A stretch of DNA of 64,000 nt from an uncultured Candidatus Binatia bacterium (lineage in GTDB: Bacteria; Desulfobacterota; Binatia; UBA9968; JAJDTQ01): the NCBI GenBank assembly GCA_965204205.1, contig OZ241976.1, positions 2,922,322 to 2,986,321 of the forward strand, given 5' to 3'. A program made the position numbers and the translations under genes. Of the stretch, positions 2,820 through 64,000 are shown piece by piece. Position 1 is the first letter of the stretch. Every line of letters starts with the position of its first letter. Under the pieces are notes generated by a model. The model was not told the DNA's origin. It saw only the letters and a list, made by a program, of their open reading frames with translations, and did no database searches.

Positions 2820-3455
2820 CTAATCGAACTCGTAGGGTATCTGCTCGGGCCCGTACCCTTGCCAGTACTTGCAGGTCCGCGGGTCGTATCGGCCCTGGAG
2901 GAAGCCGCCGGGCTTCTCGGCGCGCACGATGATGGCGACCGTGCGCTCCGTGCCGCTCTCCTCCGCGTGGATCTGCCAGGGACCCACGAGGTCGATCTTG
3001 CCCGGCTCCACCTGGGCGTTCTCGATCTTTCGGATTTCCGCGTAGTCCGGCTTCGAACCGTCGTCCAGCCGTTCATAACGCTCGATGGTCTCACGGCCGT
3101 CCAGTACTCCGTACAGCGTCCAGTTGTGCGCGTGGTCATGGATGCTGGTGCGGGTTCCCGGCGCCTTGACCAGGCCGTTGATCACGAATCCGTGGTCCGG
3201 GTCCTCGTAGAGGAGCAGGTTCTGCGCCCGTTGGCCGCCCTCGGCCACGGTCAGCCCGCCCTGGTCGCAGTCGGGCCATTTCCCGGCCTGCGCCTTCACG
3301 TCGGGGTCCGTCAGCAACTCTGCCAGAAGGGGCCCCATCTTCTGCCAGCGCTTGTCGGCGTCCGGCTCGTCTTCATGAAGTTGCCGGGCGGCCGCGATGA
3401 ACCGCTTGGCGGCCGACGGCTCCGTTTCGCGGGCCGGCATGGGACGTGCGCTCAT
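2820..3455 (-). CDS. cupin-fold protein, 3-His (cysteine-dioxygenase-like) metal site
   Basis: ORF with IHDHAHNW ... GPWQIHAEES spacing reminiscent of 3-His cupin dioxygenases. Start chosen at MSARPMP. Family assignment is tentative. Confidence 0.45.
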   Translation of the reverse strand: MSARPMPARETEPSAAKRFIAAARQLHEDEPDADKRWQKMGPLLAELLTDPDVKAQAGKWPDCDQGGLTVAEGGQRAQNLLLYEDPDHGFVINGLVKAPGTRTSIHDHAHNWTLYGVLDGRETIERYERLDDGSKPDYAEIRKIENAQVEPGKIDLVGPWQIHAEESGTERTVAIIVRAEKPGGFLQGRYDPRTCKYWQGYGPEQIPYEFD

Positions 3456-3539
3456 GGTGTTTCCTCCCTTGGCTCCTTGGTGGCTTGCGTGGACGGGGTC
3501 GCCCAACTCGTGGAAAGTATCCGAGGAAACGACGCCCTG

Positions 3540-4466
3540 TCAACCGGATACGACACCCTTGACCAGCCGCACCCGGCTGGTGTCGCGCAGCTTGTCGAAG
3601 CGCTCCCGCTCCACCTCGAAGTAGTGGGGCAGCGCCGAGCTCTTGAGGATATAGTGATCGCCTTCTTTCGGGGACACCACCGTGTACGTGACCGCGGACC
3701 CCGCCTTCGTCTCGATGACGTACTCGAGGATGGGCCTTCCGGCGTCGAAACGGGCCTTGCCGTCCTTGGACAGCACATCGTTGAAACCGACTCCGGCCAC
3801 GCGCTCCACCAATTCCTTCACGGGCCCGGCGTCGGTTTCCTCGTTCTCCCGCAACCCTTCGACCTGGAACCCGCCGTCCCCGGCCGTGAGCGCATAGGAC
3901 CCCAGGTCGATGCGGGCGATGTCCTCCACCGCCGTCTTCAGGACCTCCGTGTCGTACCACGAGTCTGCATCCGACGGAGCGTCGAAGGCGTTGAAATCGA
4001 TGGCGTAGGTGTGCTCGTCGCCGTCGAGGCGGGCGTGCACCTTGCGAAAGCCGGGCGATGAGCCGAGGAAAACGTCGCCGAGGACGTCCTTCCCCTTGAG
4101 GAACCGCACCCGCCGCTCGAAGTCCACCTCGGTGACCCTCAACTGCCGGGCCGCCACCAGGGTCTTTCCCACCGGCCAGGAGCGCTTGGCGCCGAGCAGC
4201 TTGCCGGTGAACTCCTCGAACTTCGTCGACGAGACCGGAAAGTCGCCCTTGCCGGGCAGAACCCAGCCGCCGTCCCTGCGCGCCAGCCGCAACGCCGCTT
4301 TCCGCATGCCCTCGATGGTCACGGCGTCGGCGCTGTCCAGTTCCACGGCCAGCAAAGGGGTATCCGCCTCGAAGGCGCCGGGGTCGTCTCCCTGGAAGTT
4401 GACCCAGGCCACCAGTCCCGCCTGCAGCACCAACACCAGCAACAAGAGCTTGATCGATCGACTCAC
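3540..4466 (-). CDS. DUF4340-family protein, the usual partner of GldG-type ABC transporter auxiliary proteins
   Basis: N-terminal TM/signal (MSRSIKLLLLVLVLQAGLVAW). Position immediately downstream of the fused permease/GldG gene matches the conserved GldA-GldF-GldG-DUF4340 gene order. Confidence 0.6.
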   Translation of the reverse strand: MSRSIKLLLLVLVLQAGLVAWVNFQGDDPGAFEADTPLLAVELDSADAVTIEGMRKAALRLARRDGGWVLPGKGDFPVSSTKFEEFTGKLLGAKRSWPVGKTLVAARQLRVTEVDFERRVRFLKGKDVLGDVFLGSSPGFRKVHARLDGDEHTYAIDFNAFDAPSDADSWYDTEVLKTAVEDIARIDLGSYALTAGDGGFQVEGLRENEETDAGPVKELVERVAGVGFNDVLSKDGKARFDAGRPILEYVIETKAGSAVTYTVVSPKEGDHYILKSSALPHYFEVERERFDKLRDTSRVRLVKGVVSG

Positions 4467-16570: not shown

Positions 16571-17071
16571 CTACGTGCGGGTTAGCCGGTCGATGATTTC
16601 GCGGTGCTGCGGGTAGCGCCGGATCAAGTCGTCCCTCCCGGGCATCTCGAAATCGGCGAAGTCGAAGCCGGGGACGCAGGTGCAGCCCACCAGGGCGTAT
16701 CCCCGGTTGCCGTCCACGGAGGCGCCGAACAGCGAGCCGCCGGGAACCAACGCCTGCAGGCACTCGCCCGCCTGCGGATCGGGGCCCATGCTGATGGGCG
16801 AGTAACGGCCCGCGGTGTCGATGACGTGTACGGTGAGGGTCGAGCCCGCGTAGAAGTGCCACAACTCGTCCTGCTTGATGCGGTGGAGGGCGGAGAACTC
16901 TTCGTCCTGCAGCAGGAAATAGATGGAGGTGCCGAGGCTGCGGGGGCCATCGTAGCCGGGCAGCAGCCCGCCCGGGACGGTGACCCGGGAGCGGTAGATC
17001 TCCTTGAAGTGGCCGCCTTCGGGATGGGGATCGAGACCGAGGATTTCTATCCAATAGGCGGCGTCATGCAT
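16571..17071 (-). CDS. DUF985 cupin-domain protein
   Basis: Start at MHDAAYWIEILGL (rc cat 17069-17071). Cupin beta-barrel core. Confidence 0.65.
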   Translation of the reverse strand: MHDAAYWIEILGLDPHPEGGHFKEIYRSRVTVPGGLLPGYDGPRSLGTSIYFLLQDEEFSALHRIKQDELWHFYAGSTLTVHVIDTAGRYSPISMGPDPQAGECLQALVPGGSLFGASVDGNRGYALVGCTCVPGFDFADFEMPGRDDLIRRYPQHREIIDRLTRT

Positions 17072-17121
17072 GAAGCGTTCTCCTGGCGGCATCGCTCCCA
17101 GGATGGCACCCTTCGGATGGG

Positions 17122-17246
17122 GCCGTTCGACTTCGCTTCGCGAAGCCTGTCCTGAGCTTGACGAAGGGCTCAGGGCGAACGGTTAGGTTGAGCGGTCGGA
17201 TCTACCCCGTTCGCCCTGAGCGAAGCGAAGCGAAGTCGAAGGGCGC
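17122..17246. repeat. nested inverted-repeat intergenic element, copy A
   Basis: Outer arms TTCGACTTCGCTTCGC / GCGAAGCGAAGTCGAAGG. Inner arms CTCAGGGCGAACGG / CCGTTCGCCCTGAG. Same architecture as copies at 26341-26452 and 39408-39546. Confidence 0.6.
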
Positions 17247-17293
17247 CATCTCAACGGATCCGAGTCTTCCTAAGCAACTTGTGACAACCGACA

Positions 17294-18451
17294 CTAGTCT
17301 GGATCGCGCAAAGTCGGCCGCCATAGCGCGAGATCACCCCCGCCCTCGAAGTGGTAGCGCTCGATGGCTTCCGAGTCCAGGGTGACGCCGAGGCCGGGAC
17401 CGCCGGGCGGGCGCATGAAGCCGTTGACCGGCTCCAGCGGCTCCTGGAGAAGGCCGCTACGCAGCGGGTTCTCGTTGTAGTCGAACTCCATGACCGCACT
17501 GTTCTCCAGGGCGGCGGCCAGATGAAGGCTGGCGGCGAGGGCGACGCCGTCACCGTAGGTGTGGAGCGAGATCGGAAGACCGCGCTCCGCGGCGTCGGCG
17601 GCGATGTTGCGCACCTCGCTGATGCCGCCGGCGCGGGCGACGTCGGGCTGCAGGATGTCCACCGCGTCCCGGGCCATGAACGATTCGAACGCGAAACGGG
17701 TGTGCAGGTTCTCGCCGACGGCCACGGGGACGCCGGAGCGGGCCTTGAGCCGCGCGTGGCCGGCCACGTCTTCCACAAAAAACGGCTCCTCCAGCCAGCC
17801 GATGCCGAGCTTCTCGAACTCCTTTGCCGCGGCCAGCGCCACCTCCAACCCGTAGCCCATGTTGGCGTCGGTCATGAGCCGGAAGTCGGGTCCCAGCGCC
17901 GACCGCACCGCGCCCACGATCTCGACGTCCTGGGCGAGGTCGAAGCCCACCTTGATCTTGATGCCGTGGAAGCCCCGTTCCGCCAGCTTCTCGGCCTTCT
18001 CCACCGCGGCCCGGGTCTCCTCGGGATAGAGCGCGGTGGCGTAGACCTCGACCCGGTCCCGGCGCTTGCCGCCCAGCAACTCGTAGACCGGTACGCCCTT
18101 CACCTTGCCGGCAATGTCCCACAGCGCGATGTCGACGCCGCTGAGGGCTACTACACCGACGCCTCTGGAGCCGAAGGCGCGCACGCCGGCGCGGAAGTAG
18201 GCCGTGTCCCAGATCTCTTCGATGGCAAGGGGGTCCATGCCGACGAGCAGCGGCCTGAGCACGTGGGCGACGACCGCTTCCAGAAGCAGTCCGTTGCCGG
18301 AGCAGGACCCGATGCCGGTGATTCCGTCGTCGGTATGGACCTCGACGAGACATGCATGACGATGGCTTCGCACGCCCGTGCGGCTCTCCACCCGGCCCTC
18401 CGCGCCGAGGGAGGCACGCAACCGCCGGGTCGCAATGTCCGTGATCTTCAT
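17294..18451 (-). CDS. enolase-superfamily enzyme (mandelate racemase / muconate lactonizing enzyme family, acid-sugar dehydratase-like)
   Basis: MR/MLE N- and C-terminal domains with metal-binding D/E residues (KIKVG ... DANMGY ... WLEEP). Start at MKITDIATRRL (rc cat 18449-18451). Confidence 0.8.
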   Translation of the reverse strand: MKITDIATRRLRASLGAEGRVESRTGVRSHRHACLVEVHTDDGITGIGSCSGNGLLLEAVVAHVLRPLLVGMDPLAIEEIWDTAYFRAGVRAFGSRGVGVVALSGVDIALWDIAGKVKGVPVYELLGGKRRDRVEVYATALYPEETRAAVEKAEKLAERGFHGIKIKVGFDLAQDVEIVGAVRSALGPDFRLMTDANMGYGLEVALAAAKEFEKLGIGWLEEPFFVEDVAGHARLKARSGVPVAVGENLHTRFAFESFMARDAVDILQPDVARAGGISEVRNIAADAAERGLPISLHTYGDGVALAASLHLAAALENSAVMEFDYNENPLRSGLLQEPLEPVNGFMRPPGGPGLGVTLDSEAIERYHFEGGGDLALWRPTLRDPD

Positions 18452-18483
18452 TCGAAATACCCGCCTCTCCAAGAGCTCGGGTC

Positions 18484-18513
18484 CACCGCGCCTTGACACC
18501 CTTTGCCCGGCGG
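18484..18513 (+). promoter_or_regulatory. candidate sigma70-type promoter for the 2-hydroxyacid dehydrogenase gene
   Basis: TTGACA (18484-18489), 18-nt spacer, TAGATA (18508-18513), about 135 nt upstream of the ATG at 18648 in a divergent intergenic region. Confidence 0.3.
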
Positions 18514-19673: not shown

Positions 19674-19736
19674 CGGCCGGCCGGAACCTTGGGCACGGGG
19701 CTCCGGAGGGAAACCGTCTCTCCGGGGAACTAACGG

Positions 19737-19760
19737 TAGGGGCGACCGGCGGTCGCCCCT
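19737..19760. repeat. REP-like GC palindrome (AGGGGCGACC-GGC-GGTCGCCCCT)
   Basis: 10-bp perfect stem. Same motif occurs at 23149, 23211, 29403 and 37103. It lies 20 nt upstream of the crotonase start. Confidence 0.5.
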
Positions 19761-23148: not shown

Positions 23149-23230
23149 TAGGGGCGACCGGCGGGTCGCCCCTACGGGATCACACCGCCGCGTAGCGGCA
23201 ACCGTAGAGGTGGCCGGCGGTCGCCCCTAC
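23149..23230. repeat. REP-like palindrome (full copy 23149-23175 plus half copy 23211-23230)
   Basis: TAGGGGCGACCGGCGGGTCGCCCCTAC is a perfect 27-bp palindrome. It sits between convergent genes and could act as a bidirectional terminator. Confidence 0.5.
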
Positions 23231-24106: not shown

Positions 24107-26332
24107 TCACACGTCGATGCGGGTGTCCCAGAGGATCGGATCGCCGCCCATGGGCGGGCAGAACAGATCCACTTGCAACTGCACCTGGCAGCCCGGACAA
24201 CTGTACTCATGGTACTCGCCGATGTAGGGCTCGCCAGACGGCAACGCGTCCTCCATGTAGTCGTTCAGGTCCAGGATGCGGCGCAGCGCGTAGTTCTTGT
24301 AGTTCTCCTCGGCGCCGCAGTAGAGGTGGCCGCATTGGACGCAGCGGATGGCGTGTTGACCGTTTCGGCGGGCGATCTCGAGGCTCGCGTGGAAGCGCAG
24401 CACCGATTCGTACTCCCCCGCCTGCGCCGGGTCCAGCGCCGAGGTCTTCCCCGAGGGCGGCTCCCCGAGTTGTTTGCGCCCGGCGCGGATGCGCTCCCGC
24501 AGGCTCTGAGTGGCGGCCTCGTCCACGGAACGGCCGTCCCGGGCCAGCACCACGCCGTACACCTCCTCGCCGATCTTGGGGGTGAGCCAGCCGCGGCCGA
24601 AATCCCGCAACACCAGCGCGGGGTCACGTTCCAGCGGGTCCCCGAAACCGCCGCCCCCGGCCACGTAATCGATGAGGAGGCTCCCTTCCGGCAGCGCCAC
24701 GCGTTCCGGAACCCCGTCGGGATGGACCACCCGGCCCCAGGTGCCGTCGCGCATGCCGGCGCCGTCCGGGTACTCGCCCTGCCGGACCCGGTCCAGCAAC
24801 TCCATGCCCGCGTCCACCATGTAGCGCAGCACGCTCTTGCCGGTGGGGTAGCCGCCGCACAGGCCGTAACCGCCCTGGGCCACGCCGCCGTAGGGCTTGT
24901 AGTCCACGCTGCAGTCCTGGGAGCCGTAGATCCAGTAGACGCGGTAGCTGCCGAGGCCGCCGCGGTACTGGCCGAAGCCGCTGCCGTCGGGGTTGTGGCC
25001 ACGGGTGAAGTAGAGGAACGGGTACTGCATCTCGATGCGCTCGATGTCGCTGATGCCGGCGGAGGGAATGTTCATGTGGCCGCCGGTGTTGACGCCGTCC
25101 CGCAAGGGGGCGCCGCCCATGCCGGCGCCGTGGATGTCGTAGAGTCCCTGGGCCACGCGGATGCCGTCCCGGGTGTGGCCGCCGTAGAAGTAGCCGGGTC
25201 CGCCGGCGTAGGCCAGGTTGCCGGTGGTGGAGGCGTTGACGTCCTCGGCCCGTCCCGCCGCGTAGAGCATCTTGGAGACGCACTCGCAGATGGTGGAGAC
25301 CAGCACGTTGCCCACCCGCGGCGCGGCGCCGCAGGCCGCCGGGAAAGTGCAGTTCAGGATGGTGCCCTCGGGTATCTTGAGGGTCACCGGCTTCATCTTG
25401 CCGTCACTCCAGGGCACGTCCCAGAAGAGCGCGTTGGTGAGCGCCAGGGTGATGTGCGCGGCGGTGCTGGGAAAGGTGGAGTTGTGGTCGGTGTCGGTCT
25501 GCGGGCTGGTCCCCTCCAGGTCGAACTCCAGCTCGTCGCCCTTCTTGGTCATGGTGCAGTAGAGCTGCTGGGCCACGGCCTTGCGCGACTTGCGGTCCAG
25601 GGTAGTGACGTACTCCCGGGACACCCAGGTGCCGTCGGGCAGCGAGCGCAGCTTGGCGCGGGCCTTGGCCTCCGAGTCCTCGATCATGCGCCGGCCGGCA
25701 GCCTCGACGAACTCCGGACCGAACTTCTCCACCAGCCCGAGGTAGCGGTCGGCGCAGACGTTGTTGCCGGCGATCATGGCCTTCATGTCCAGGCCCACGT
25801 ACTGCGGGTCCCGGCACATGCCGGTGAGGGTGCGGAAAACGTCCTCGCGGAACTCGCCCTTCTCCACGATCTTGAGGCCGCTGATGCAGATGCCCTCGTG
25901 GAAGATCTCCAGCGCGCCTCCGCGCAACACCCCGCCGGTGTCGGCGGTGTGGGTGCTGGTGGCGGTCCAGGCGATCAGCTCGCCGTCGTAGAAGATGGGC
26001 TTGATGACCATCATGTCGTAGGTATGGGAGCCCGCCACGTAGGGGTCGTTGAAGAAGAACTGGTCGCCGTCGTAGAAGCCGGGCGACTCCTTGAAGTACT
26101 CCATCATGTTCTTGATGGCCTGGGAAGTGGCCGCGGCGAACCGCAGGTGGCCGGAGCACGCCAGCACCATGACGCCCTCGGTGTCGTAGAACGAGCTCAT
26201 GCACTCGCCGCCCTGGGCGACGATGGGAGAGGCGGTGACGCGCTGCAGCGTCATGCGGCCCTCTTCGCCGATCGCCCAGAGCCGGTGGAAGTACATTTCG
26301 TATTTTATAGGATCAACCGCTGTCGGTTCCAT
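24107..26332 (-). CDS. hydantoinase B / oxoprolinase family protein (acetone-carboxylase alpha-like), C-terminal Cys4 motif
   Basis: 741 aa HyuB-fold. The C-terminal CVQCGHLYC ... CPGCQ pair of CxxC motifs resembles the Zn site of acetone/acetophenone carboxylase alpha subunits. Confidence 0.8.
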   Translation of the reverse strand: MEPTAVDPIKYEMYFHRLWAIGEEGRMTLQRVTASPIVAQGGECMSSFYDTEGVMVLACSGHLRFAAATSQAIKNMMEYFKESPGFYDGDQFFFNDPYVAGSHTYDMMVIKPIFYDGELIAWTATSTHTADTGGVLRGGALEIFHEGICISGLKIVEKGEFREDVFRTLTGMCRDPQYVGLDMKAMIAGNNVCADRYLGLVEKFGPEFVEAAGRRMIEDSEAKARAKLRSLPDGTWVSREYVTTLDRKSRKAVAQQLYCTMTKKGDELEFDLEGTSPQTDTDHNSTFPSTAAHITLALTNALFWDVPWSDGKMKPVTLKIPEGTILNCTFPAACGAAPRVGNVLVSTICECVSKMLYAAGRAEDVNASTTGNLAYAGGPGYFYGGHTRDGIRVAQGLYDIHGAGMGGAPLRDGVNTGGHMNIPSAGISDIERIEMQYPFLYFTRGHNPDGSGFGQYRGGLGSYRVYWIYGSQDCSVDYKPYGGVAQGGYGLCGGYPTGKSVLRYMVDAGMELLDRVRQGEYPDGAGMRDGTWGRVVHPDGVPERVALPEGSLLIDYVAGGGGFGDPLERDPALVLRDFGRGWLTPKIGEEVYGVVLARDGRSVDEAATQSLRERIRAGRKQLGEPPSGKTSALDPAQAGEYESVLRFHASLEIARRNGQHAIRCVQCGHLYCGAEENYKNYALRRILDLNDYMEDALPSGEPYIGEYHEYSCPGCQVQLQVDLFCPPMGGDPILWDTRIDV

Positions 26333-26340
26333 CGAAGTCT

Positions 26341-26452
26341 CCTGAAATGCCGTCCTTCGACTTCGCTCGGCTTCGCCTCGCTACGCTCGGGACGAACGGT
26401 TGTGAATCCCATTTCCGCTCGTCCCGAGCGTAGCGAGGTCTGCCGAGCGAAG
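26341..26452. repeat. nested inverted-repeat intergenic element, copy B (inside the hyuA-hyuB operon spacer)
   Basis: Outer arms GTCCTTCGACTTCGC / GCGAAGTCGAAGGAC. Inner arms CGCTACGCTCGGGACGAACGG / CCGCTCGTCCCGAGCGTAGCG. Confidence 0.6.
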
Positions 26453-26481
26453 TCGAAGGACGCTTCAATTGATCTTGACTC

Positions 26482-28590
26482 CTAGATCTCCATCACCAGG
26501 TTCAGGTACTGGTCCACGGTCACCTTGGCGCCCGGCGGCACCGGAATGGTGGTGAAGGGCAGCTCCAGGACGGCCGGACCCGCTACCTCGTTGCCGGCGT
26601 TCAGCAGCGAGTTGTCGTACACCGGGGTCTCGATGAAGCCGCGCTCCGGCCTCGTGAAGTAGACGTTACGTTTGCCCTTGACGGCCTGGGAACCGTCCCC
26701 CTTCTCAATGAGCTGCGGCTTCAGCTCCGGCTTGGTGACCAGGCCCACGGCATCCACCCGGATGGCGCTGATCTCCATGCCGGCCTTGGTGTAGCCCGCG
26801 CCTACGCCGTAGAGCTCCTCGTACTTCTTCTCGAACATTTCCTGCAGTTCCCGCAGCCGCTCTTCGGTCATGCGGTCCCACGGCAGCGGGATCTCCACGC
26901 CGGCGGTCTGCCGGCGGTAGCGCATGGTGAAGAAACGGCGGTACTCCACCTGGTCGGCCTTGAAGCCCTCGCCGGTCATGATCTCCACCAGCTCGTTCTC
27001 GATGGTGTCCAGACGCTCGTTGGGTCCCTCGGGCTGGGCCGGGAAGATGTACTGGCAGGTCATGACACGGGTGTGGATGACGTCCGCCGCGGCCACGCCG
27101 AATGCGGAGAACACCGGCGAGGTAGGGAAGATATAGATCTTGTTGATGCCCAGCTCGGCGGAGAAGCCGGCGGAGTGCACCGGCCCGGCGCCGCCGAAGG
27201 CGTAGATGACGAACTCCTCGGGCAGGTGCCCGGTGCGCACCACCTGCTGGCGGATCAGGTCCGACATCTTGCTGTTGACGATGTCGTAGACTCCGGCCGC
27301 GGCCTCGACGTTGCTCAGCCCGAGCGGCTTGGCGATCTTCTCCTCCACCGCCTTCTCGGCCTTTTCCTTGTTGAGCGACTTGCGCCCGCCCAGGAAGTAG
27401 TCGGGATCGATGATGCCCAGCACCAGGTCGGCATCCGTGACCGTCACCTCCTCGCCGCCGGCGTCGTAGCAGACCGGCCCGGGGCTCGCGCCCGCGCTCT
27501 GGGGTCCCACCAGCAGACGCCCGGTCTCCTCGTCGACCCGCGCGATGGTGCCGCCGCCGGCGCCGATGGACTGGATGTCGATGATAGGCTGCAGCATGCG
27601 GAAACGCTCGACGATGGGCTCCGCCGCGTAACGCCAATAGCCCTCCGTGATGAGGCCCACGTCGAAGCTGGTGCCGCCCATGTCCGCGGTGATGACGTTG
27701 GGGTGGCCCAGCAGACCGGCCACGTAGGCGGACGCGATGGCGCCGCCGGCGGGCCCGGACTGGAGGTTGGACACCGGCGTGGCGTGGGCGCGGTGGGCCA
27801 CGCCGCCGTTTCCCTGCATGATCAGGAACGGCCCCTCCAGCCCGCCCTCCTCGAGCTTGGTCTGGAGCCCGCCGAGGTAGCGGTCCACGGTAGGGCCGAG
27901 GAAGCTGTTGATGATGGCGGTGTTGGCGCGGGCGTACTCACCGGCCACCTGGGCCAGCTCGCTGCCGAAGGACCAGAATACCGTGTTCGACGGGTCAGCC
28001 TCCCGGGCCAGGGCGCGCACGTCGTCTTCGTGCTTGGCGTTGGCCCAGGCGTGGAGCAGGCTCACCGCGATGGCCTCGCACCCTTCCTCGTCCACGAGCT
28101 TGCGGATCGCCTCCATCACGTCCTGCCGGGACAACGGCACCACCACCTCGCCGCGGTAGTCGATGCGCTCACGCACGCCCAGCACCCGCTCGCGGGGCAC
28201 CAGCGGCTCGGGCTTGGTGACCCAGGTGGCGTGGCGGATCTCCTCCTCGGAGAGGCCGTCCACCCGCCCGATGGCTCGCATGATCTCGGTGGTGTCCTCG
28301 AATCCGCGGGTGGTGATGAAACCCACCTTCACGCCCGTGCGGGTAATCAAGGCGTTGGTGGCCACGGTGCTGCCGTGCTTGAAGAGCACGGCCTGCTTCA
28401 GCAGATCGGCGCGGTCCACGTCCAGCACCAGGGCGGCTTCGGTGAGGGCGTCCATCACGCCCCGGGAGAACTCGTCCGGCGTCGTCGACGCCTTGGCGGT
28501 CCACACCTCCCCGCTGGGGGACATGACCACCACGTCCGTGAACGTCCCGCCTGTGTCGATACCGATGATGTAGTCCTTCGCTTCGGCCAT
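26482..28590 (-). CDS. hydantoinase A / oxoprolinase family ATP-dependent subunit (acetone-carboxylase beta-like)
   Basis: Start at MAEAKDYIIGIDTGGTFTDVV (ASKHA-type ATP-binding N-terminus). About 702 aa. Confidence 0.85.
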   Translation of the reverse strand: MAEAKDYIIGIDTGGTFTDVVVMSPSGEVWTAKASTTPDEFSRGVMDALTEAALVLDVDRADLLKQAVLFKHGSTVATNALITRTGVKVGFITTRGFEDTTEIMRAIGRVDGLSEEEIRHATWVTKPEPLVPRERVLGVRERIDYRGEVVVPLSRQDVMEAIRKLVDEEGCEAIAVSLLHAWANAKHEDDVRALAREADPSNTVFWSFGSELAQVAGEYARANTAIINSFLGPTVDRYLGGLQTKLEEGGLEGPFLIMQGNGGVAHRAHATPVSNLQSGPAGGAIASAYVAGLLGHPNVITADMGGTSFDVGLITEGYWRYAAEPIVERFRMLQPIIDIQSIGAGGGTIARVDEETGRLLVGPQSAGASPGPVCYDAGGEEVTVTDADLVLGIIDPDYFLGGRKSLNKEKAEKAVEEKIAKPLGLSNVEAAAGVYDIVNSKMSDLIRQQVVRTGHLPEEFVIYAFGGAGPVHSAGFSAELGINKIYIFPTSPVFSAFGVAAADVIHTRVMTCQYIFPAQPEGPNERLDTIENELVEIMTGEGFKADQVEYRRFFTMRYRRQTAGVEIPLPWDRMTEERLRELQEMFEKKYEELYGVGAGYTKAGMEISAIRVDAVGLVTKPELKPQLIEKGDGSQAVKGKRNVYFTRPERGFIETPVYDNSLLNAGNEVAGPAVLELPFTTIPVPPGAKVTVDQYLNLVMEI

Positions 28591-28627
28591 GTCTGTTCTT
28601 CCTCGTGATTCGTCCATCGCGTCCCGT

Positions 28628-29368: not shown

Positions 29369-29402
29369 CTCGGGCTCCTTCCTTGGCTTGCGGTGACCTG
29401 AA

Positions 29403-29426
29403 AGGGCGACCGCCGGTCGCCCCTAC
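29403..29426. repeat. REP-like palindrome copy
   Basis: AGGGCGACCGCCGGTCGCCCCTAC between the SDR start and the UbiD stop. Confidence 0.5.
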
Positions 29427-37783: not shown

Positions 37784-37798
37784 TCCGACCTCGTTGAG

Positions 37799-37955
37799 TG
37801 TTGCGTTCCACGAATACGTCGACGAATCTGCTGGTCCTTCTCGCCGTCGGCCGCGTTGCTCCTCCTCGCGTGGTACCGGCCACTGCTCGTCGTCGCGCCT
37901 TGCCGACGACAAGAAGTCCTGCGCATCTTCATCAACGTATTCGTGGAACGCAACA
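37799..37955. mobile_element. 157-bp MITE-like element, copy 1 (termini TGT...ACA, flanks TGAG / CTAG)
   Basis: Terminal inverted repeats TGTTGCGTTCCACGAATACGT / ACGTATTCGTGGAACGCAACA. Conserved about 90-bp core shared with copies at 45712-45868 (inverted) and 62881-63037. It fills the leuC-leuD spacer. Confidence 0.7.
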
Positions 37956-39353
37956 CTAGTTGTAATCCCGCACGTCCACGACCTTGCCGTTGAGCGCGGC
38001 CGCGGCCACCATGGCCGGACTCATCAGCAGCGTCCGCCCCTCCGGGCTCCCCTGGCGGCCGATGAAGTTCCGGTTCGACGATGAAGCGCACACCTCCCGG
38101 CCCTGGAGCTTGTCGGGGTTCATGGCCAGACACATGGAGCAGCCTGCCTCCCGCCACTGAAAGCCGGCCTCGGTGAAGACCCGGTCGAGCCCAGCCGCCT
38201 CCGCCTGCTTCTTCACTTCGACGGACCCGGGGACCACCAGGGCCCGCACGCCGGAGGACACCTGCCGCCCCTTGGCGACGCGCGCCGCGGCCACCAGGTC
38301 CGAAAACCGCGAGTTGGTGCAGGAACCGATGAATGCCACGTCGATGGGAGTGCCGAGGATCGGCGCCCCCGGCGTCCAGCCCATGTGCTGGTAGGCCTTC
38401 TCCACGGTCTGGGGATCCTTCAGGTCCTCGGGGCGGGGCATGTTCTCCAGCACGCCCAACGCCTGGCCGGGATTGATGCCCCAGGTGACCGTGGGCTCGA
38501 TGGCCGAGCCGTCGATGTCCACGACATCGTCATAGCCGGCGTCCGGATCCGACGCCATCGAGCGCCAGTACGCCGCCGCGCGGTCGAAGGCCTCGCCCTT
38601 GGGCGCGAACGGCCGTCCCAACAGGTACTCGAAGGTGGTGTCGTCGGGGTTGACGTAACCCACCAGGGCGCCGCCCTCGATGCTCATGTTGCAGACGGTC
38701 ATGCGCTCGTCCATGTTCATGGCATCCAGCACCGCGCCGCCGTATTCGTAGGCGAACCCCTTGCCGCCACCGACCCCGAGAGTCCGGATGATGGTCAGGA
38801 TCACGTCCTTGGCGTGCACCCCGAGGGGGAGGCTGCCGTTGACGTTGATGCGCCGCACGTCGAGCCGGTCCATGGACAGCGTCTGGGTCGCCAGCACGTC
38901 ACGCACCTGGCTGGTGCCGATGCCGAAGGCCAGCGTCCCGAAAGCTCCGTGGGTGCTCGTGTGGCTGTCGCCGCAGGCCAGGGTCATTCCCGGCTGGGTC
39001 AGGCCGAGCTGCGGGCCGATGACGTGCACGATGCCCTGGCGGTCGCTTCCCAGGCCGTAGAACTCGATGTCGAAGTCACGGACGTTCTTCTCCAGCGCCG
39101 CCATCATCGCCTCGGCCTGCTCGTCGGCGAAGGGCCGCACCTGGGTATCGGTGGGGATGATGTGATCGGCGGTGGCGAAGGTCCGCTGCGGATAGGCGAT
39201 GGAGAGCCCGCGCTCCCGCATCATGTCGAATGCCTGCGGGGTCGTGACCTCGTGGACCAGGTGCAATCCGATGAAGAGCTGGGTCTGGCCGGTGGGCAAC
39301 GTCGTCACCGCGTGGCTGTCCCAGACCTTGTCATAGAGCGTACGTTCGGACAT
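37956..39353 (-). CDS. leuC: 3-isopropylmalate dehydratase large subunit
   Basis: Aconitase-family Fe-S cluster Cys motifs. 465 aa. TAG stop codon lies inside the CTAG flank of MITE copy 1. Confidence 0.9.
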
Positions 39354-39407
39354 GGATACGTTCTCTCCTTGGCCGGAAGTTATAGCCAGCGACCTGCGCT
39401 AATTCAA

Positions 39408-39546
39408 GCGTCCTTCGACTTCGCTCCGCTACGCTCAGGACGAACGGTGGTGGAACCCGTAGCTCCGGGCGAGTGGCTCGTGTAAGACCACGACTCCGTT
39501 CGTCCTGAGCGTAGCGCCGCGTTAGCGGCGCGAAGTCGAAGGACGC
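39408..39546. repeat. nested inverted-repeat intergenic element, copy C
   Basis: Outer arms GCGTCCTTCGACTTCGC / GCGAAGTCGAAGGACGC. Inner arms CTACGCTCAGGACGAACGG / CCGTTCGTCCTGAGCGTAGCG. Longer central loop than the other copies. It lies between truA and leuC. Confidence 0.6.
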
Positions 39547-39574: not shown

Positions 39575-40315
39575 CTATTCGTAGCGCACTTCCACCAGGA
39601 ACAGCCCCCGCGCCGGCGCGGTGGGACCGGCCAGCGTGCGGTCGCGGCCGTCTATCAGCGCCGAAAGGTCGCCGGCATCGCGTTCGCCCAGCCCTACCTC
39701 CACCAGCGTGCCGACGATGTTCCGCACCATGTGCCGGAGGTACCCGGTGGCCTCGATGCGATACACCCAGTGTTCCTCCCACCGGTACAGCTCGTTGTGG
39801 TAGACCCTCCGCACCGCTGTGGCCGCGCCACAGCCCGCGGCGCGGAAGCACGAGAAGTCGTGCTCCCCTTCCAGCGCGGCCAACGCCTCGCGCATGGCGT
39901 CGACGCGCAACGGCCTCGCCACGTGCCACGAGTAGCGATCGTTGAAGACCGACCGCCAGGGGTGGTTCCAGAGCCGGTACTCGTAGACGCGCCGGCGCGC
40001 GTCCCTCCTGGCGTCGAACGAGGGAAGCGCGGCCTCCGCCGCCTTCACCGTGATGTCGTCCGGGGTGAGGGCGTTGAGGCTGCGCTGAAGCCGCGCGAGG
40101 TCCCGGCCCTCGGGACACGCGAAATCGGCCACTTGTCCCAACGCATGGACGCCCGCGTCGGTCCGTCCCGACCCATGGACGCGCACCCGCTGCTTCAGCA
40201 GCACGGCCAGAGCCTCCTCCAGGACGCCCTGGACCGTCGGCCCGCCGGACTGGACCTGCCAGCCCCGGTATTCGGTGCCGTCGTACTCGATGGTCAGTCG
40301 GACGTTCATGAACAC
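39575..40315 (-). CDS. truA: tRNA pseudouridine(38-40) synthase
   Basis: N-terminal LTIEYDGTEYRGWQVQ and catalytic Asp context, 246 aa. Confidence 0.85.
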   Translation of the reverse strand: MFMNVRLTIEYDGTEYRGWQVQSGGPTVQGVLEEALAVLLKQRVRVHGSGRTDAGVHALGQVADFACPEGRDLARLQRSLNALTPDDITVKAAEAALPSFDARRDARRRVYEYRLWNHPWRSVFNDRYSWHVARPLRVDAMREALAALEGEHDFSCFRAAGCGAATAVRRVYHNELYRWEEHWVYRIEATGYLRHMVRNIVGTLVEVGLGERDAGDLSALIDGRDRTLAGPTAPARGLFLVEVRYE

Positions 40316-40457
40316 GTGTATCGATCGACGGGCGCCCCGCGGACGCAGGCGAGTTCGGAAACCCGCCTCGTCCTAGCGTCGTGTCCGAGTAATCGGAATC
40401 TGATGCAGGGGCGGGTTCAAAAACCCGCCCGCGCCATGGCGCAATCCGGCGGGCTTG

Positions 40458-45685: not shown

Positions 45686-45711
45686 ACTAGTGTCGCGGGA
45701 CGCGACACTAG
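45686..45711. mobile_element. 17-bp fused-termini footprint (TGTCGCGGGACGCGACA) flanked by CTAG on both sides
   Basis: Its two halves equal the left (TGTCGCG) and right (GGGACGCGACA) ends of MITE copy 3 with the whole interior missing. It shares its right CTAG with MITE copy 2. Confidence 0.4.
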
Positions 45712-45868
45712 TGTGGTGTCTGGTTCATTCGCAGCATAATAGGCGGAGGATTTTTCGTCGTCGGCAAGGCGCGATGACGAGCAGTGGCGGGTACCACGCG
45801 AGGAAGAGCAACGCGGCCGACGGCGAAAAAGACCCGCAGATTATGCTGCGAATTAACCAGACACCACA
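45712..45868. mobile_element. 157-bp MITE-like element, copy 2 (core inverted relative to copies 1 and 3), flanked by CTAG / CTAG
   Basis: TIRs TGTGGTGTCTGGTTCATTCGCAGCATAAT / ATTATGCTGCGAATTAACCAGACACCACA. Core is the reverse complement of the copy 1 core. The right CTAG contains the ilvC TAG stop codon. Confidence 0.7.
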
Positions 45869-46885
45869 CTAGTTCTTGCTCTTGTCCACCAGCCGGTTCT
45901 CCGCCAGCCACGGCATCATCGAGCGGAGCTGCTCGCCCACCTGCTCGATGGGATGGCTGCGCGAAGCCTGGCGCAGCCCGTTGAAGTTGGGCGACCCGGA
46001 GCGGTGCTCGTTCATCCACTCGTCCGCGAACTTGCCCGACTGGATGTCCGACAGGATTTCCTTCATGACCTTCCGCGTATCGTCGTTGACGATGCGCCTC
46101 CCGCGGGTCAAGTCGCCGTACTCCGCGGTGTTGCTGACCGAGTAGCGCATGTTGGCCAGGCCGCCCTCGTAGATCAGGTCGACGATCAGCTTGACCTCGT
46201 GGCAGCACTCGAAATAGGCCATCTCCGGCGGGTAGCCTGCCTCCACCAGGGTCTCGTAGCCCGCCTGGATCAACGACGTGAGGCCGCCGCAGAGCACCGT
46301 CTGCTCGCCGAACAGATCGGTTTCGGTCTCGTCCTTGAAGGTGGTCTCGATGACCGCGGCGCGGGCGCCGCCGATGGCGGCGGCATAGGCCAGTCCCACG
46401 GGCTGGGTGTCCTTGGACGGGTCCTGATGGATAGCCAGCAGGCACGGCACCCCCCGGCCCCGTTCGAACTCGCTCCGCACCAGGTGTCCCGGGCCCTTGG
46501 GGGCCACCATGAAGACGTTGACGTCTTCCGGAGGCACCACGCGTTTGAAGTGGATGTTGAAGCCGTGTCCGAACGCCATGTAGTTTCCGGGCTTCAGGCC
46601 CGGCCGGATATCCTGCTGGTAGACCTCGCCCTGGAGCTCATCGGGCAACAGCACCATGACCACGTCCCCGGCTTCGACCGCCTCCGCCGTCTCCATGACC
46701 GTGAGGCCAGCGTCGGCCGCCTTGGCCCATGAAGCGCTGTCGCGGCGGAGTCCCACGACGACGTCCACGCCGGAGTCGCGCAGGTTGGTGGCGTGCGCGT
46801 GCCCCTGGCTGCCGTAACCGAGCACGGTGACCTTGCGGTCGCGAATACGGCTCAGATCCGCGTCCTGGTCATAGTAGACCTGCAT
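45869..46885 (-). CDS. ilvC: ketol-acid reductoisomerase
   Basis: Class I KARI. N-terminal Rossmann [10 protein letters not shown]. 338 aa. GGGAGG RBS. Confidence 0.9.
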
Positions 46886-62824: not shown

Positions 62825-62880
62825 GTTCCGTCCTCCCATGTTCCAGGAATCCTCTTCTTTCACGTCGAACACCCCACTAG

Positions 62881-63037
62881 TGTCGCGTCCCGCAAATAAG
62901 TGGCATAATTTGCTGGTCTTTTTCGCCGTCGGCTGCGTTGCTCTTCCTCGCGTGGTGCCCGCCACTGCTCGTCATCGCGCCTTGCCGACGACAAAAAATC
63001 CTGCGCAACTTATGCCACTTATTTGCGGGACGCGACA
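62881..63037. mobile_element. 157-bp MITE-like element, copy 3, flanked by CTAG / CTAG
   Basis: TIRs TGTCGCGTCCCGCAAATAAGTGGCATAA / TTATGCCACTTATTTGCGGGACGCGACA. Core collinear with copy 1. The right CTAG contains the TAG stop of the tolA-like gene. Confidence 0.7.
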
Positions 63038-64000
63038 CTAGCCATCCGAAGCGTCGGGCCGGAATTCGATCTCGACGTTCCCGAAGTCACGCGCATAGCG
63101 GGCCGGAGGCGGCGGCAAGCTGCTGGCGCGTACCGCCCGTACCACCGACTCGTCATAGGAAGGGTCCCCCGAGGACTTCAACAGCTTGAGACCGAAGATC
63201 TCCCCGTTGGCCCGAACCCCGAAACCGACGGTCACCTCGAGGTCCGTGCGTTTGCCGATCCAGGTCCAGCGTTCCTTGATCCGGCCGAGCATCTCGTTCC
63301 AATAGATCACGAACTCCCTGTCTCTGACGATGCCGCCGCCCGTGCCTCCGCCCGTGCCCGTACCCTTTGCGACCCGGGCCTCGCGCCGCAACCGGGCTCG
63401 CTCTCTGGCCGTGGCCAAGGCGTCGCCGATACGCCTGTCCTTCAGCCTTCGGACCAGCCGTGGGTCCTTCCCCGGATCGCGCTTGGGCTTCGGTTTCTTG
63501 GCGACCTTCTTGACGAGTTTCTTGGGAGTCTTGCGCGCGGGCTTCTTCCGCTTGACGACCTTCTTCGGCTTGGGTTTCTTGCGCTCGACGACCTTCTTCT
63601 TCGGTTTCTTGGGCTCCTTCTTGACCTTGGCCGGCGGCGCCTCTTTCTTCGGCTTCGGCGGTTCCGGCTTCCGCACGATCTTCTTGGGCGGAACCGGGAC
63701 CTTCTCCGGAGCCTCGACGGTTTCGGGCGGGTCCGGGACGGCGGGCTCGACGGCAACCTCGTCCAACGGATCTTCGTCGAGCGGCGGGAGCGGCTCGACA
63801 GGCAACGGTTCCGGCTCTTGCCGCTTGGGGCTTCGCGGTTCGGGCGGAGGCGCCGGCATGCTCCCCGCCACGAGGTCCACCGTGTACACGGGAATGGGAA
63901 GCTCCCGACGGGCGGTGCTCGACGGCACCACCAGCAACGTCAGGATCAGCACCAGATGAAGAGCGCCGGAAAAGCAGATCCACCATCTCAGCCGGTTGTC
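63038..64000 (-). CDS. TolA/TonB-like protein (partial, 5-prime end beyond the window)
   Basis: N-terminal TM segment, long Pro/Lys-rich periplasmic spacer (PKKPKK repeats), and a C-terminal TolA/TonB-type domain. The reading frame is open to the window edge. Confidence 0.6.
   Translation of the reverse strand, partial: DNRLRWWICFSGALHLVLILTLLVVPSSTARRELPIPVYTVDLVAGSMPAPPPEPRSPKRQEPEPLPVEPLPPLDEDPLDEVAVEPAVPDPPETVEAPEKVPVPPKKIVRKPEPPKPKKEAPPAKVKKEPKKPKKKVVERKKPKPKKVVKRKKPARKTPKKLVKKVAKKPKPKRDPGKDPRLVRRLKDRRIGDALATARERARLRREARVAKGTGTGGGTGGGIVRDREFVIYWNEMLGRIKERWTWIGKRTDLEVTVGFGVRANGEIFGLKLLKSSGDPSYDESVVRAVRASSLPPPPARYARDFGNVEIEFRPDASDG

Follow-up and report, generated by a model that had tools for sequence, protein, structure and literature searches.

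Three nested inverted-repeat elements lie in short spacers between co-directional genes of an uncultured Candidatus Binatia bacterium (contig OZ241976.1), and the question raised by this locus is whether such elements act as RNA, within the messages into which they would be transcribed, or as DNA. The elements, copies A, B, and C, were analyzed in a stretch of 64,000 nucleotides, hereafter the window, for which an initial annotation had proposed stems under selection, as RNA hairpin or DNA cruciform, and a role in mRNA decay and operon polarity like that of REP/BIME elements. In our reading, the window elements are probably gene-less copies of the cognate hairpin repeat that flanks the gene of a small single-domain UPF0213-like GIY-YIG nuclease. 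By analogy with the Ssn system, they would most likely belong to a system of the Ssn kind in which both the nuclease subfamily and the hairpin are different, rather than represent a dedicated regulatory RNA. The family itself, its anatomy, covariation, and turnover, and the physical association with the nuclease gene are directly established here.

A modular hairpin unit and the GIY-YIG gene that it flanks

A genome collection holding one genome per species was scanned with the pattern TTCGACTTCGC-N4-34-CTCRGGRCGAACGG, resulting in at least 118 loci across several bacterial phyla (cited below by locus number, e.g., L058), in which the 25 pattern-specified bases are fixed by construction and only the remaining positions are informative. 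The loci belong to Binatia, Thermodesulfobacteriota/Deltaproteobacteria metagenome-assembled genomes (MAGs), Anaeromyxobacter, Kofleriaceae, Nitrospirales, Sphingomonadales, Xanthomonadales, Sideroxydans, and Uliginosibacterium; the spread at phylum or class level covers Binatia, delta-type MAGs, Myxococcota, Nitrospirota, Sphingomonadales, Xanthomonadales, and Betaproteobacteria. The three nested copies are real members of a family, and this family is far larger than the initial annotation could see.

The basic unit is ~42 nt long (GGCGTCCTTCGACTTCGC..GCTACGCTCAGGACGAACGG) and is made of a short stem (CGTCCT/AGGACG), conserved loop ends (TTCGAC...GCTCA) around a variable middle, and a GAACGG tail, the middle varying by the copy number of a TTCGC pentamer or by a GC-rich mini-hairpin. 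A canonical full element consists of GGCGTCCTTCGACTTCGCTTCGCTACGCTCAGGACGAACGG, a loop of ~15 nt, and the reverse complement. Since 171 of the 265 arms detected by an arm hidden Markov model (HMM) in 1.1 Mb of loci (at least 118 listed) are unpaired, the other 94 forming 47 inverted pairs, the building block is the ~42-nt unit and not the palindrome. Units are arranged head-to-head, with GAACGG inward, as in the window copies, or tail-to-tail, as in Sphingomonads; tandem arrays (L060, L106, L109, L113), mosaics with a short-form unit and other modules, and singletons also occur. With its two head-to-head units, each window copy can extrude as one long hairpin. The loop, initially described as variable, is present but not random, a TTGTGGAAYCC-like sequence being common to many copies. 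The elements are intergenic, and seemingly intragenic cases are due to over-extended starts of open reading frames (ORFs). Loops and GAACGG boundaries are also hot spots of short tandem duplication (L210 1770-1890; L060 6047-6130; L106 500-1420; L113, L109, L045), with four to five GGGTTTTTGTYGCGGAGRGATAAC copies in L210 and four whole elements in tandem in Rhodanobacter L106 as examples.

Among inverted units listed at 250 to 3000 nt from each other, three loci from gamma MAGs share a spacing of ~320 nt and a common ORF. This 97-aa ORF is flanked on both sides by units at L018, L039, and L045 (gamma MAGs) and at L058 (Binatia), out of the at least 118 pattern-selected loci. The ORFs of this type are 96 to 98 aa long, and their sole Pfam domain is GIY-YIG (PF01541; E 2e-18 to 3.5e-17). 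At L058, located on a Binatia chromosome, the protein is 66% identical to that of L039 and each flank is a head-to-head dimer. The gene is also bracketed by such hairpins on two closed Binatia chromosomes. On one of them, OZ244869.1, two head-to-head elements of exactly the window type, mini-hairpin GCCGC..GCGGC included, enclose gene P0135, and this chromosome also holds many window-type copies (L028, L035, L052, L066).

The association was also examined in 80 metagenome loci chosen by protein similarity alone. The motif C[CT]GAG-N3-9-TCGA[AG], searched within 150 nt of the ORF (background of 0.022 upstream and 0.014 downstream per 150 nt), was found upstream of the GIY-YIG ORF in 47 of 78 loci, with a median distance to the start codon of 36 nt; its complement was found downstream in 19 of 78, and both sides carried it in 15 of 76. 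An arm-HMM match (E<=1, <=150 nt) lay beside the ORF in 73 of the 80 loci, on both sides in 33. The commonest hairpin beside GIY-YIG genes is the short form CCGTTCGTCC-TGAGCTTGTCGAA-GGAYGAACGG, and the window-type long-loop form also flanks the gene, at L129, L131, L195, L058, L210, and L211, the last of which shows a tail-to-tail form. At L132, L136, L138, L152, and L160, the hairpins beside GIY-YIG ORFs have a core plus a copy-specific, perfectly complementary basal stem of 10 to 16 bp (e.g., gcttgctatctttact...agtaaagatagcaagc), which suggests either that the hairpins inserted into palindromes already present or that neighboring DNA is copied in inverted form when a copy arises.

Homologues of the GIY-YIG protein number 3,724 at E<=1e-10, mostly of 93 to 110 aa, and its best PDB relatives are 1ZG2 (E 8e-20) and 1YWL. 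Its GIY..YIG tyrosines are 10 residues apart, and it is 28% identical to a cd10448-like ORF of L004. Judged by its sequence, the nuclease appears to be of the UPF0213/YhbQ-like type and of a different subfamily from SsnA. We know of no established function for UPF0213/YhbQ-like GIY-YIG proteins, a large family with the structures 1ZG2 and 1YWL. Our literature search, with supplements and subscription journals outside its reach, found no paper linking UPF0213-type proteins to this hairpin sequence, and searches by DNA strings and by peptides encoded in the repeats found no paper on the hairpin.

Long inverted arms, a size of 110 to 140 bp, intergenic location, and presence/absence polymorphism recall miniature inverted-repeat transposable elements (MITEs), i.e., deletion derivatives of insertion sequences (ISs) with a DDE transposase, of which the arms would be the terminal inverted repeats. 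We nevertheless consider this origin hardly credible. None of 43 full elements has a flanking direct repeat of 3 nt or more, and those of 2 nt (2 of 43) are at chance level, which extends to the family the lack of target-site duplication first noticed in the window. Most copies are single arms (171 of 265), and what lies between inverted units is either the GIY-YIG gene or a housekeeping gene (DctP, L25), with no transposase gene among them; no IS with such termini and a DDE transposase was seen. The family is also virtually absent from the plasmid and phage collections (two weak matches to Sphingomonad megaplasmids and one phage-like contig), and the search of these collections gave no vector for its spread. 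The single phage match (L127 1500-1540, KX853513.1 'Virus Rctr41k', from a methane-oxidising enrichment) is a degenerate, intergenic single unit (CCGTCCTTCGACTGCGCTTCGCTCCGCTCAGGAC). Composite transposons were considered and rejected: the genes between inverted units 0.9 to 3 kb apart encode DctP and L25 (Pfam), the rest being large ordinary-looking ORFs.

The likeness in kind to REP/BIME elements drawn by the initial annotation was borne out, with singletons, head-to-head and tail-to-tail dimers, clusters, and mosaic modules. As in REP/REPIN/BIME-RAYT systems (PMC2817692, PMC3116915), short hairpins occur as intergenic singletons, inverted doublets, and mosaic clusters without target-site duplication, and far outnumber the one associated nuclease-type gene that they flank. 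GTAG is also present on the complementary strand beside the mini-hairpin in gamma-type units, recalling the GTAG-tagged REPs (PMC3733652). It is nevertheless quite improbable that the elements are classical REP/REPIN sequences that owe their mobility to a RAYT (a Y1 HUH transposase of the IS200/IS605 type) whose gene lies in another part of the genome. A tblastn search with E. coli RayT gave no match in the 1.1 Mb of hairpin loci and the window, and the gene flanked by units, four times, is instead that of a GIY-YIG nuclease and not of a Y1 HUH transposase. REPs are imperfect palindromes of 20 to 40 nt with a terminal GTAG/CGTC tag, whereas the unit described here is longer (~42 nt), has a large conserved loop of 22 nt, and carries GTAG within this loop and not at the palindrome end. 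Furthermore, REP/RAYT pairs are reported to be lineage-specific and mostly inherited vertically (bioRxiv 10.1101/2021.07.10.451892, 10.1101/2022.05.22.493013), whereas the same unit sequence is shared here across phyla.

Compensatory change and the level of constraint

Substitutions in one arm had initially been reported as matched by the complementary change in the other. Fifteen distinct arm pairs were tested over 39 base pairs, using the arms only and a dummy loop as joint: 96.9% of the cells of the long hairpin are paired, both-sided change occurs in 5 of 39 pairs (14 of 500 shuffles reach that value), and the cells changed on both sides number 10 versus 3.1 in shuffles (0 of 500 shuffles). 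Compensatory arm change is genuine but sparse and limited to few positions: 26 of the 39 pairs are invariant, and copy B has one uncompensated inner-arm position, A.C on the plus strand and G.U on the sense strand. The inner arms read as first quoted, and the shared outer inverted repeat is found as six exact 11-mer arms, although the left outer arm of copy A is imperfect and degenerate (GGGCCGTTCGAC).

Covariation is also found within the unit. Columns 6 and 35 hold T-A in 109 units, C-G in 54, C.A in 18, and T.G in 2 (20 discordant; Fisher 4.5e-28), and this covariation, which is also found in units without an inverted partner (Fisher 3e-15), defines a 6-bp stem CGTCCT/AGGACG per unit. Both the T-A and C-G types coexist in every taxon group, e.g., 10 T-A, 21 C-G, and 0 discordant in Xanthomonadales. 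Because four full elements keep the within-unit pairs with broken between-arm pairs and three show the reverse, either both folds are constrained or the dimers are put together from independent units. A separate 5-bp stem is present in each half of the Sphingomonad elements; these stems exist in six fully Watson-Crick versions, differ between the halves of one element, and enclose the conserved loops TTCGACTTCGCTCA / TGAGC..TCGAA. These stems are the strongest evidence for the importance of local hairpins and not just of the long palindrome.

One rival explanation is that of cis-acting RNA hairpins under selection, whose stems would stop 3'-5' exonucleases or serve as RNase III substrates and set the relative expression of the cistrons on either side, like those of REP/BIME, ERIC, and Correia elements. 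Correia (CREE/NEMIS) and ERIC elements are 100 to 150 bp long with long inverted arms, and are co-transcribed with their neighboring genes into long mRNA hairpins open to cleavage by RNases; Correia elements, which occur in a single genus, also carry a TA duplication and an IHF site. The elements studied here are alike in size and in their long inverted arms, whereas they have no target-site duplication, span phyla, and are modular. All three copies lie between co-directional minus-strand genes, as first described, with flanking genes borne out by Pfam (MR_MLE/DUF985, hyuA/hyuB, TruA/LeuC), which supports a position where they would be transcribed into polycistronic mRNA. Each is one long near-perfect hairpin of 40 to 50 bp, foldable on either strand, and the stems are extremely stable, with RNA folds of the sense (minus) strand at -79.2 (A), -98.5 (B), and -100.4 (C) kcal/mol and z-scores of -9.0, -15.4, and -11.5, respectively (0 of 200 shuffles as stable). 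The compensated arm changes, the G.U on the sense strand as sole inner mismatch of copy B, and the predominance of tandem spacers (32 of 42 full elements) also fit this explanation.

The family-wide statistics argue otherwise. In gene-context counts based on a codon-usage gene finder trained on the L119/L121 gene calls, full elements lie in 32 tandem, 5 convergent, and 5 divergent spacers and the background in 417, 88, and 82, so that the tandem share equals that of the background (417 of 587); for single units, the counts are 39 tandem, 17 convergent, and 5 divergent. Single units in tandem spacers show no orientation bias relative to transcription (22 versus 17), and full elements oriented by their loop sequence occur in either direction (5 versus 9, hand count). 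In co-directional spacers, transition differences between arms appear on the sense strand as G.U in 12 cases and as A.C in 14, hence no preference for G.U, and a further 22 arm mismatches in the same set are due to transversions. The conserved parts include loop and tail sequences and not stems alone. In close relatives, the spacer can be empty or filled with unrelated hairpins, as described below, which means that no copy is needed locally. A comparison with Rfam gave 0 matches in the window at gathering score, the elements producing only sub-threshold matches to generic miRNA-precursor hairpins. RNA hairpins are therefore an unlikely explanation, and the part of the initial annotation that attributed the stems to selection in mRNA decay and polarity was not supported, the T-A/C-G covariation of unpartnered units being a further point against it. 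A symmetric, DNA-level constraint on a single-strand hairpin fits better than an RNA-level one because there is no orientation bias and no G.U preference and because columns 6/35 also covary in units without a partner. Altogether, these observations suggest no strand-specific RNA function.

Turnover at orthologous sites and the window copies

Eight syntenic loci of relatives (L119 to L126, TruA identity of 80 to 89%) were compared with the window; relatives of TruA carry the labels Deltaproteobacteria or Candidatus Binatia. In the truA-leuC spacer, the window and L121 share an element at one site. L123, L125, and L126 have nothing at this site, and unrelated palindromes, including a CGTC-type dimer, are found there in L119/L120, L122, and L124. 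Between the window and L121, an arm change is compensated (GACTTCGC/GCGAAGTC versus GACTCCGC/GCGGAGTC), and the loop of copy C has a 29-nt insertion relative to L121. In the asd-truA spacer of the relatives, the canonical element is found only in L119. Both spacers are hot spots for several hairpin families in which single copies are dispensable. The asd-truA spacer of the window (40316-40457) contains GGGCGGGTTCAAAAACCCGCCC-type GC-rich hairpins, a type also found in a loop in L035; among the relatives, L119 has the canonical element there and L123 an NTS/CGTC-type dimer, GTCATTCCCGCGAAAGCGGGAATCC, and others have an empty spacer.

The strong hairpins, of at least four unrelated families, that fill these two spacers in most relatives could point to terminators (factor-independent or hairpin-only) or to generic useful spacer hairpins, the shared sequence then coming from recombination among copies; copy C also ends right at a conserved promoter-like block before leuC. 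This explanation is very improbable. None of the copies is followed by a T-run (the three window loci have 0 terminator-like sites), termination would do harm at copy B, which separates the genes for the two subunits of a single enzyme, and the spacers are empty in several relatives; moreover, the conservation of loop and tail across phyla and the link to the nuclease gene would be left unexplained. The block before leuC (window 39354-39407) reads cTTGAAT-17 nt-TATGAT (TATAAC in the window) followed by GGAGA, is kept in 8 of 8 relatives whatever fills the spacer, and is probably the leuC promoter and Shine-Dalgarno sequence. A consensus promoter scan gave no call at this block in the window because the window has TATAAC.

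The refined limits of the three copies and their neighboring genes are given in Table 1. Over the 64 kb, the arm HMM finds the six arms of copies A to C and no others. With <=1 mismatch allowed, the outer-arm 11-mer TTCGACTTCGC is found 12 times in the window, versus 1.64 times by expectation; the six arms account for six of its exact matches, and the seventh exact match (16656-16666), inside the DUF985 ORF, is due to chance and unrelated to the elements. The insertion in copy A, a short-form module, is also seen in L052, L066, L031, and L115. The hairpin of copy B ends 17 nt before the ATG of the hydantoinase B gene, with AGGAG directly past the stem. The mini-hairpin architecture of copy C recurs in units of Xanthomonadales and Anaeromyxobacter, as well as in the hairpins on the flanks of the L210 GIY-YIG gene.

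Table 1. Positions in the window of the three elements, their parts, and the adjacent genes
Feature	Position	Strand	Description
Copy A	17116-17250		Head-to-head dimer of two units, GCCC/GGGC subtype
Copy A, left arm	17120-17182		
Copy A, loop	17183-17206		
Copy A, right arm	17207-17247		
Copy A, extra module	17146-17168	+	23 nt, CCTGTCCTGAGCTTGACGAAGGG, in left arm; short-form unit GTCCTGAGC-NNN-TCGAAGG of the same superfamily
Copy B	26351-26462		Head-to-head dimer; additional TCGGC/GCCGA stem segment
Copy B, left arm	26351-26399		
Copy B, loop	26400-26414		TTGTGAATCCCATTT
Copy B, right arm	26415-26462		
Copy C	39408-39546		Head-to-head dimer
Copy C, left arm	39408-39447		
Copy C, loop	39448-39495		48 nt
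Copy C, right arm	39496-39546		
Mini-hairpin	39516-39529		GCCGC-GTTA-GCGGC, in one arm of copy C only; variable P2 position of the unit
Cupin_5/DUF985 gene	16571-17092	-	Downstream of copy A (Pfam)
MR_MLE enolase-superfamily gene	17294-18499	-	Upstream of copy A (Pfam)
Hydantoinase B gene	24107-26332	-	Downstream of copy B (Pfam)
Hydantoinase A gene	26482-28617	-	Upstream of copy B (Pfam)
leuC	37956-39353	-	Downstream of copy C (Pfam)
truA	39575-40315	-	Upstream of copy C

In the inner arms (e.g., 39432-39445), the 14-mer GCTCAGGACGAACG is identical to the 5' terminus of many 16S rRNAs (27F primer region), as is the 13-mer GCTCAGGACGAAC, for which a string search of the literature gave only 16S primer papers. 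This match is probably a coincidence because the identity does not reach beyond the 14-mer on either side.

Other repeats are present in the window. A second, unrelated family (37797-37959, plus strand; 45707-45873, minus strand; 62876-63041, plus strand) has a conserved core of ~90 nt (..GGTCTTTTTCGCCGTCGGCCGCGTTGCTCTTCCTCGCGTGGTACCCGCCACTGCTCGTC..) within inverted arms of 35 to 40 nt, which start with ACTAGTGT, end with ACACTAGT, and otherwise differ per copy while remaining mutually complementary within each copy. In effect, the whole stem covaries while the core stays fixed; no Rfam match was found for this family. The leuC-leuD spacer, where its first copy lies, is just 15 nt long and empty in L121. 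A small family of GC-rich hairpins, AGGGGCGACCGGCGGTCGCCCCT (19732-19760, 23200-23228, 29396-29424), has three copies, 83 to 100% alike, at gene ends and looks REP- or terminator-like.

Relation to the Ssn system and significance

SsnA, a 94-aa GIY-YIG protein (CDD cd10448), binds and cuts its flanking hairpin repeat (NTS; generally SRM) (PMC11893778, Chenal et al., Nat Commun 2025). It acts on the repeat only as single-stranded DNA (ssDNA) and in one orientation, the NTS-ssnA-NTS arrangement resembles an insertion sequence, and the system modulates transformation in Neisseria (PMC11893778). The family described here is alike in having a single-domain GIY-YIG gene of ~95 aa bracketed by hairpin repeats that are dispersed in many genome copies, oriented, bordered by conserved non-palindromic flanks, found across phyla, and rarely within genes. 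The degree of association is also similar, with the repeat upstream of 60% of the genes and on both sides of 20%, versus 71% of ssn genes with an SRM nearby and 42% with the repeat on both sides (PMC11893778). The two systems differ in the hairpin and, it appears, in the nuclease subfamily. The hairpin has here a 10-bp (or truncated 6-bp) stem and a conserved loop of 13 to 30 nt, versus a stem of 8 to 9 bp and a loop of 3 to 5 nt in SRMs, and the tyrosines of the nuclease are 10 apart, versus 11 in SsnA (Y6/Y17) (PMC11893778). The SRM pattern HGTCWY N0-2 YYVSBRH N0-5 WNVSBRG N0-2 RNCYNB, for which NTS served as a matching positive control, had no match in copies A to C, the canonical unit, the short form, or the whole window.

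The GTAG and CGTC superfamilies of REPs have been catalogued across 8 phyla, the CGTC REPs being without known transposase (PMC3733652, Di Nocera et al. 2013). Our family resembles them as palindromic families common to distant phyla with head-to-head and tail-to-tail dimers, and its unit starts with (G)CGTCC. The CGTC REPs, which we equate with the NTS/SRM type, have stems of 8 to 9 bp starting with AT, loops of 4 to 5 nt, and a CCA tail, whereas the unit has none of these features, although it may correspond to one of the 28 families described there (PMC3733652). Beside the studied family, L004 in Sphingobium (3331-3546, minus strand) encodes a different small GIY-YIG ORF with tyrosines 11 apart and a C-terminal KRWRRAWKFDLIE..NPEW, flanked by inverted CGTCGCCCCGGGCTTGACCCGGGGCC (CGTC-type) hairpins; to judge from these signatures, it looks like a bona fide Ssn/SRM pair.

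On the model of Ssn/SRM (PMC11893778), the hairpins would work at the DNA level, in the single-stranded state that arises in replication, repair, or DNA uptake. The nuclease would recognise the folded single-stranded unit by sequence and shape and nick nearby, and this nicking, or the repair that follows it, could lead to multiplication of the repeats and their turnover at gene ends. Hairpins transcribed in operon spacers would form very stable mRNA stems with possible effects through RNase III or exonucleases, which we regard as a side effect and not as the selected function.

Several points weigh against the assignment of the window copies to a nuclease-repeat system. The GIY-YIG gene was not found in the 64-kb window (tblastn), and the best 120 of the 3,724 homologues include none placed on its contig. 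Just 4 of the at least 118 hairpin loci carry the gene, most copies lying far from it; the same is true of REP/RAYT and NTS/ssnA, but this distribution also fits a gene with no more than a preference for landing beside such hairpins. Nuclease sequence and hairpin loop type co-vary weakly (mean identity of 0.653 within types and 0.618 between). The arms of the window and L121 are ~95% identical, with flanks at 74 to 80%, and this high identity reflects constraint or concerted evolution without indicating the level. In addition, the gene calls under the context statistics are those of our own codon-usage finder, and the enzymology is borrowed from another GIY-YIG subfamily with a different hairpin.

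More broadly, we tentatively suggest, with slightly more doubt than belief, that UPF0213/YhbQ-like proteins constitute a second Ssn-like family of hairpin-specific ssDNA nucleases with their own, more elaborate cognate repeat. If this is true, a small nuclease may likewise be the partner of each of several GC-rich hairpin repeats (CGTC/NTS type, GGGCGGGTTTGAAACCCGCCC type, and others) that different phyla have in common and that also occur in the spacers examined here, and the one-year-old Ssn paradigm would be extended past cd10448 and the NTS-type hairpin, adding a new specificity, in sequence and in structure, to the proposed ssDNA-cutting toolbox. The family also matters in practice. The CCGTTCGYCC-loop-GGRCGAACGG superfamily is frequent in spurious short ORFs of GC-rich environmental bacteria, false ORFs of which annotators need to be aware, and stems of -80 to -100 kcal/mol within operons, here between hydantoinase subunits, are relevant to the measurement of expression. 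If the suggestion on UPF0213/YhbQ-like proteins holds, the window copies would be sites at which such a system is, or was until recently, active in Binatia, and a testable function would be at hand both for the very common 'junk' intergenic hairpins of soil, groundwater, and sponge-associated bacteria and for a widespread family of small nucleases without known role.

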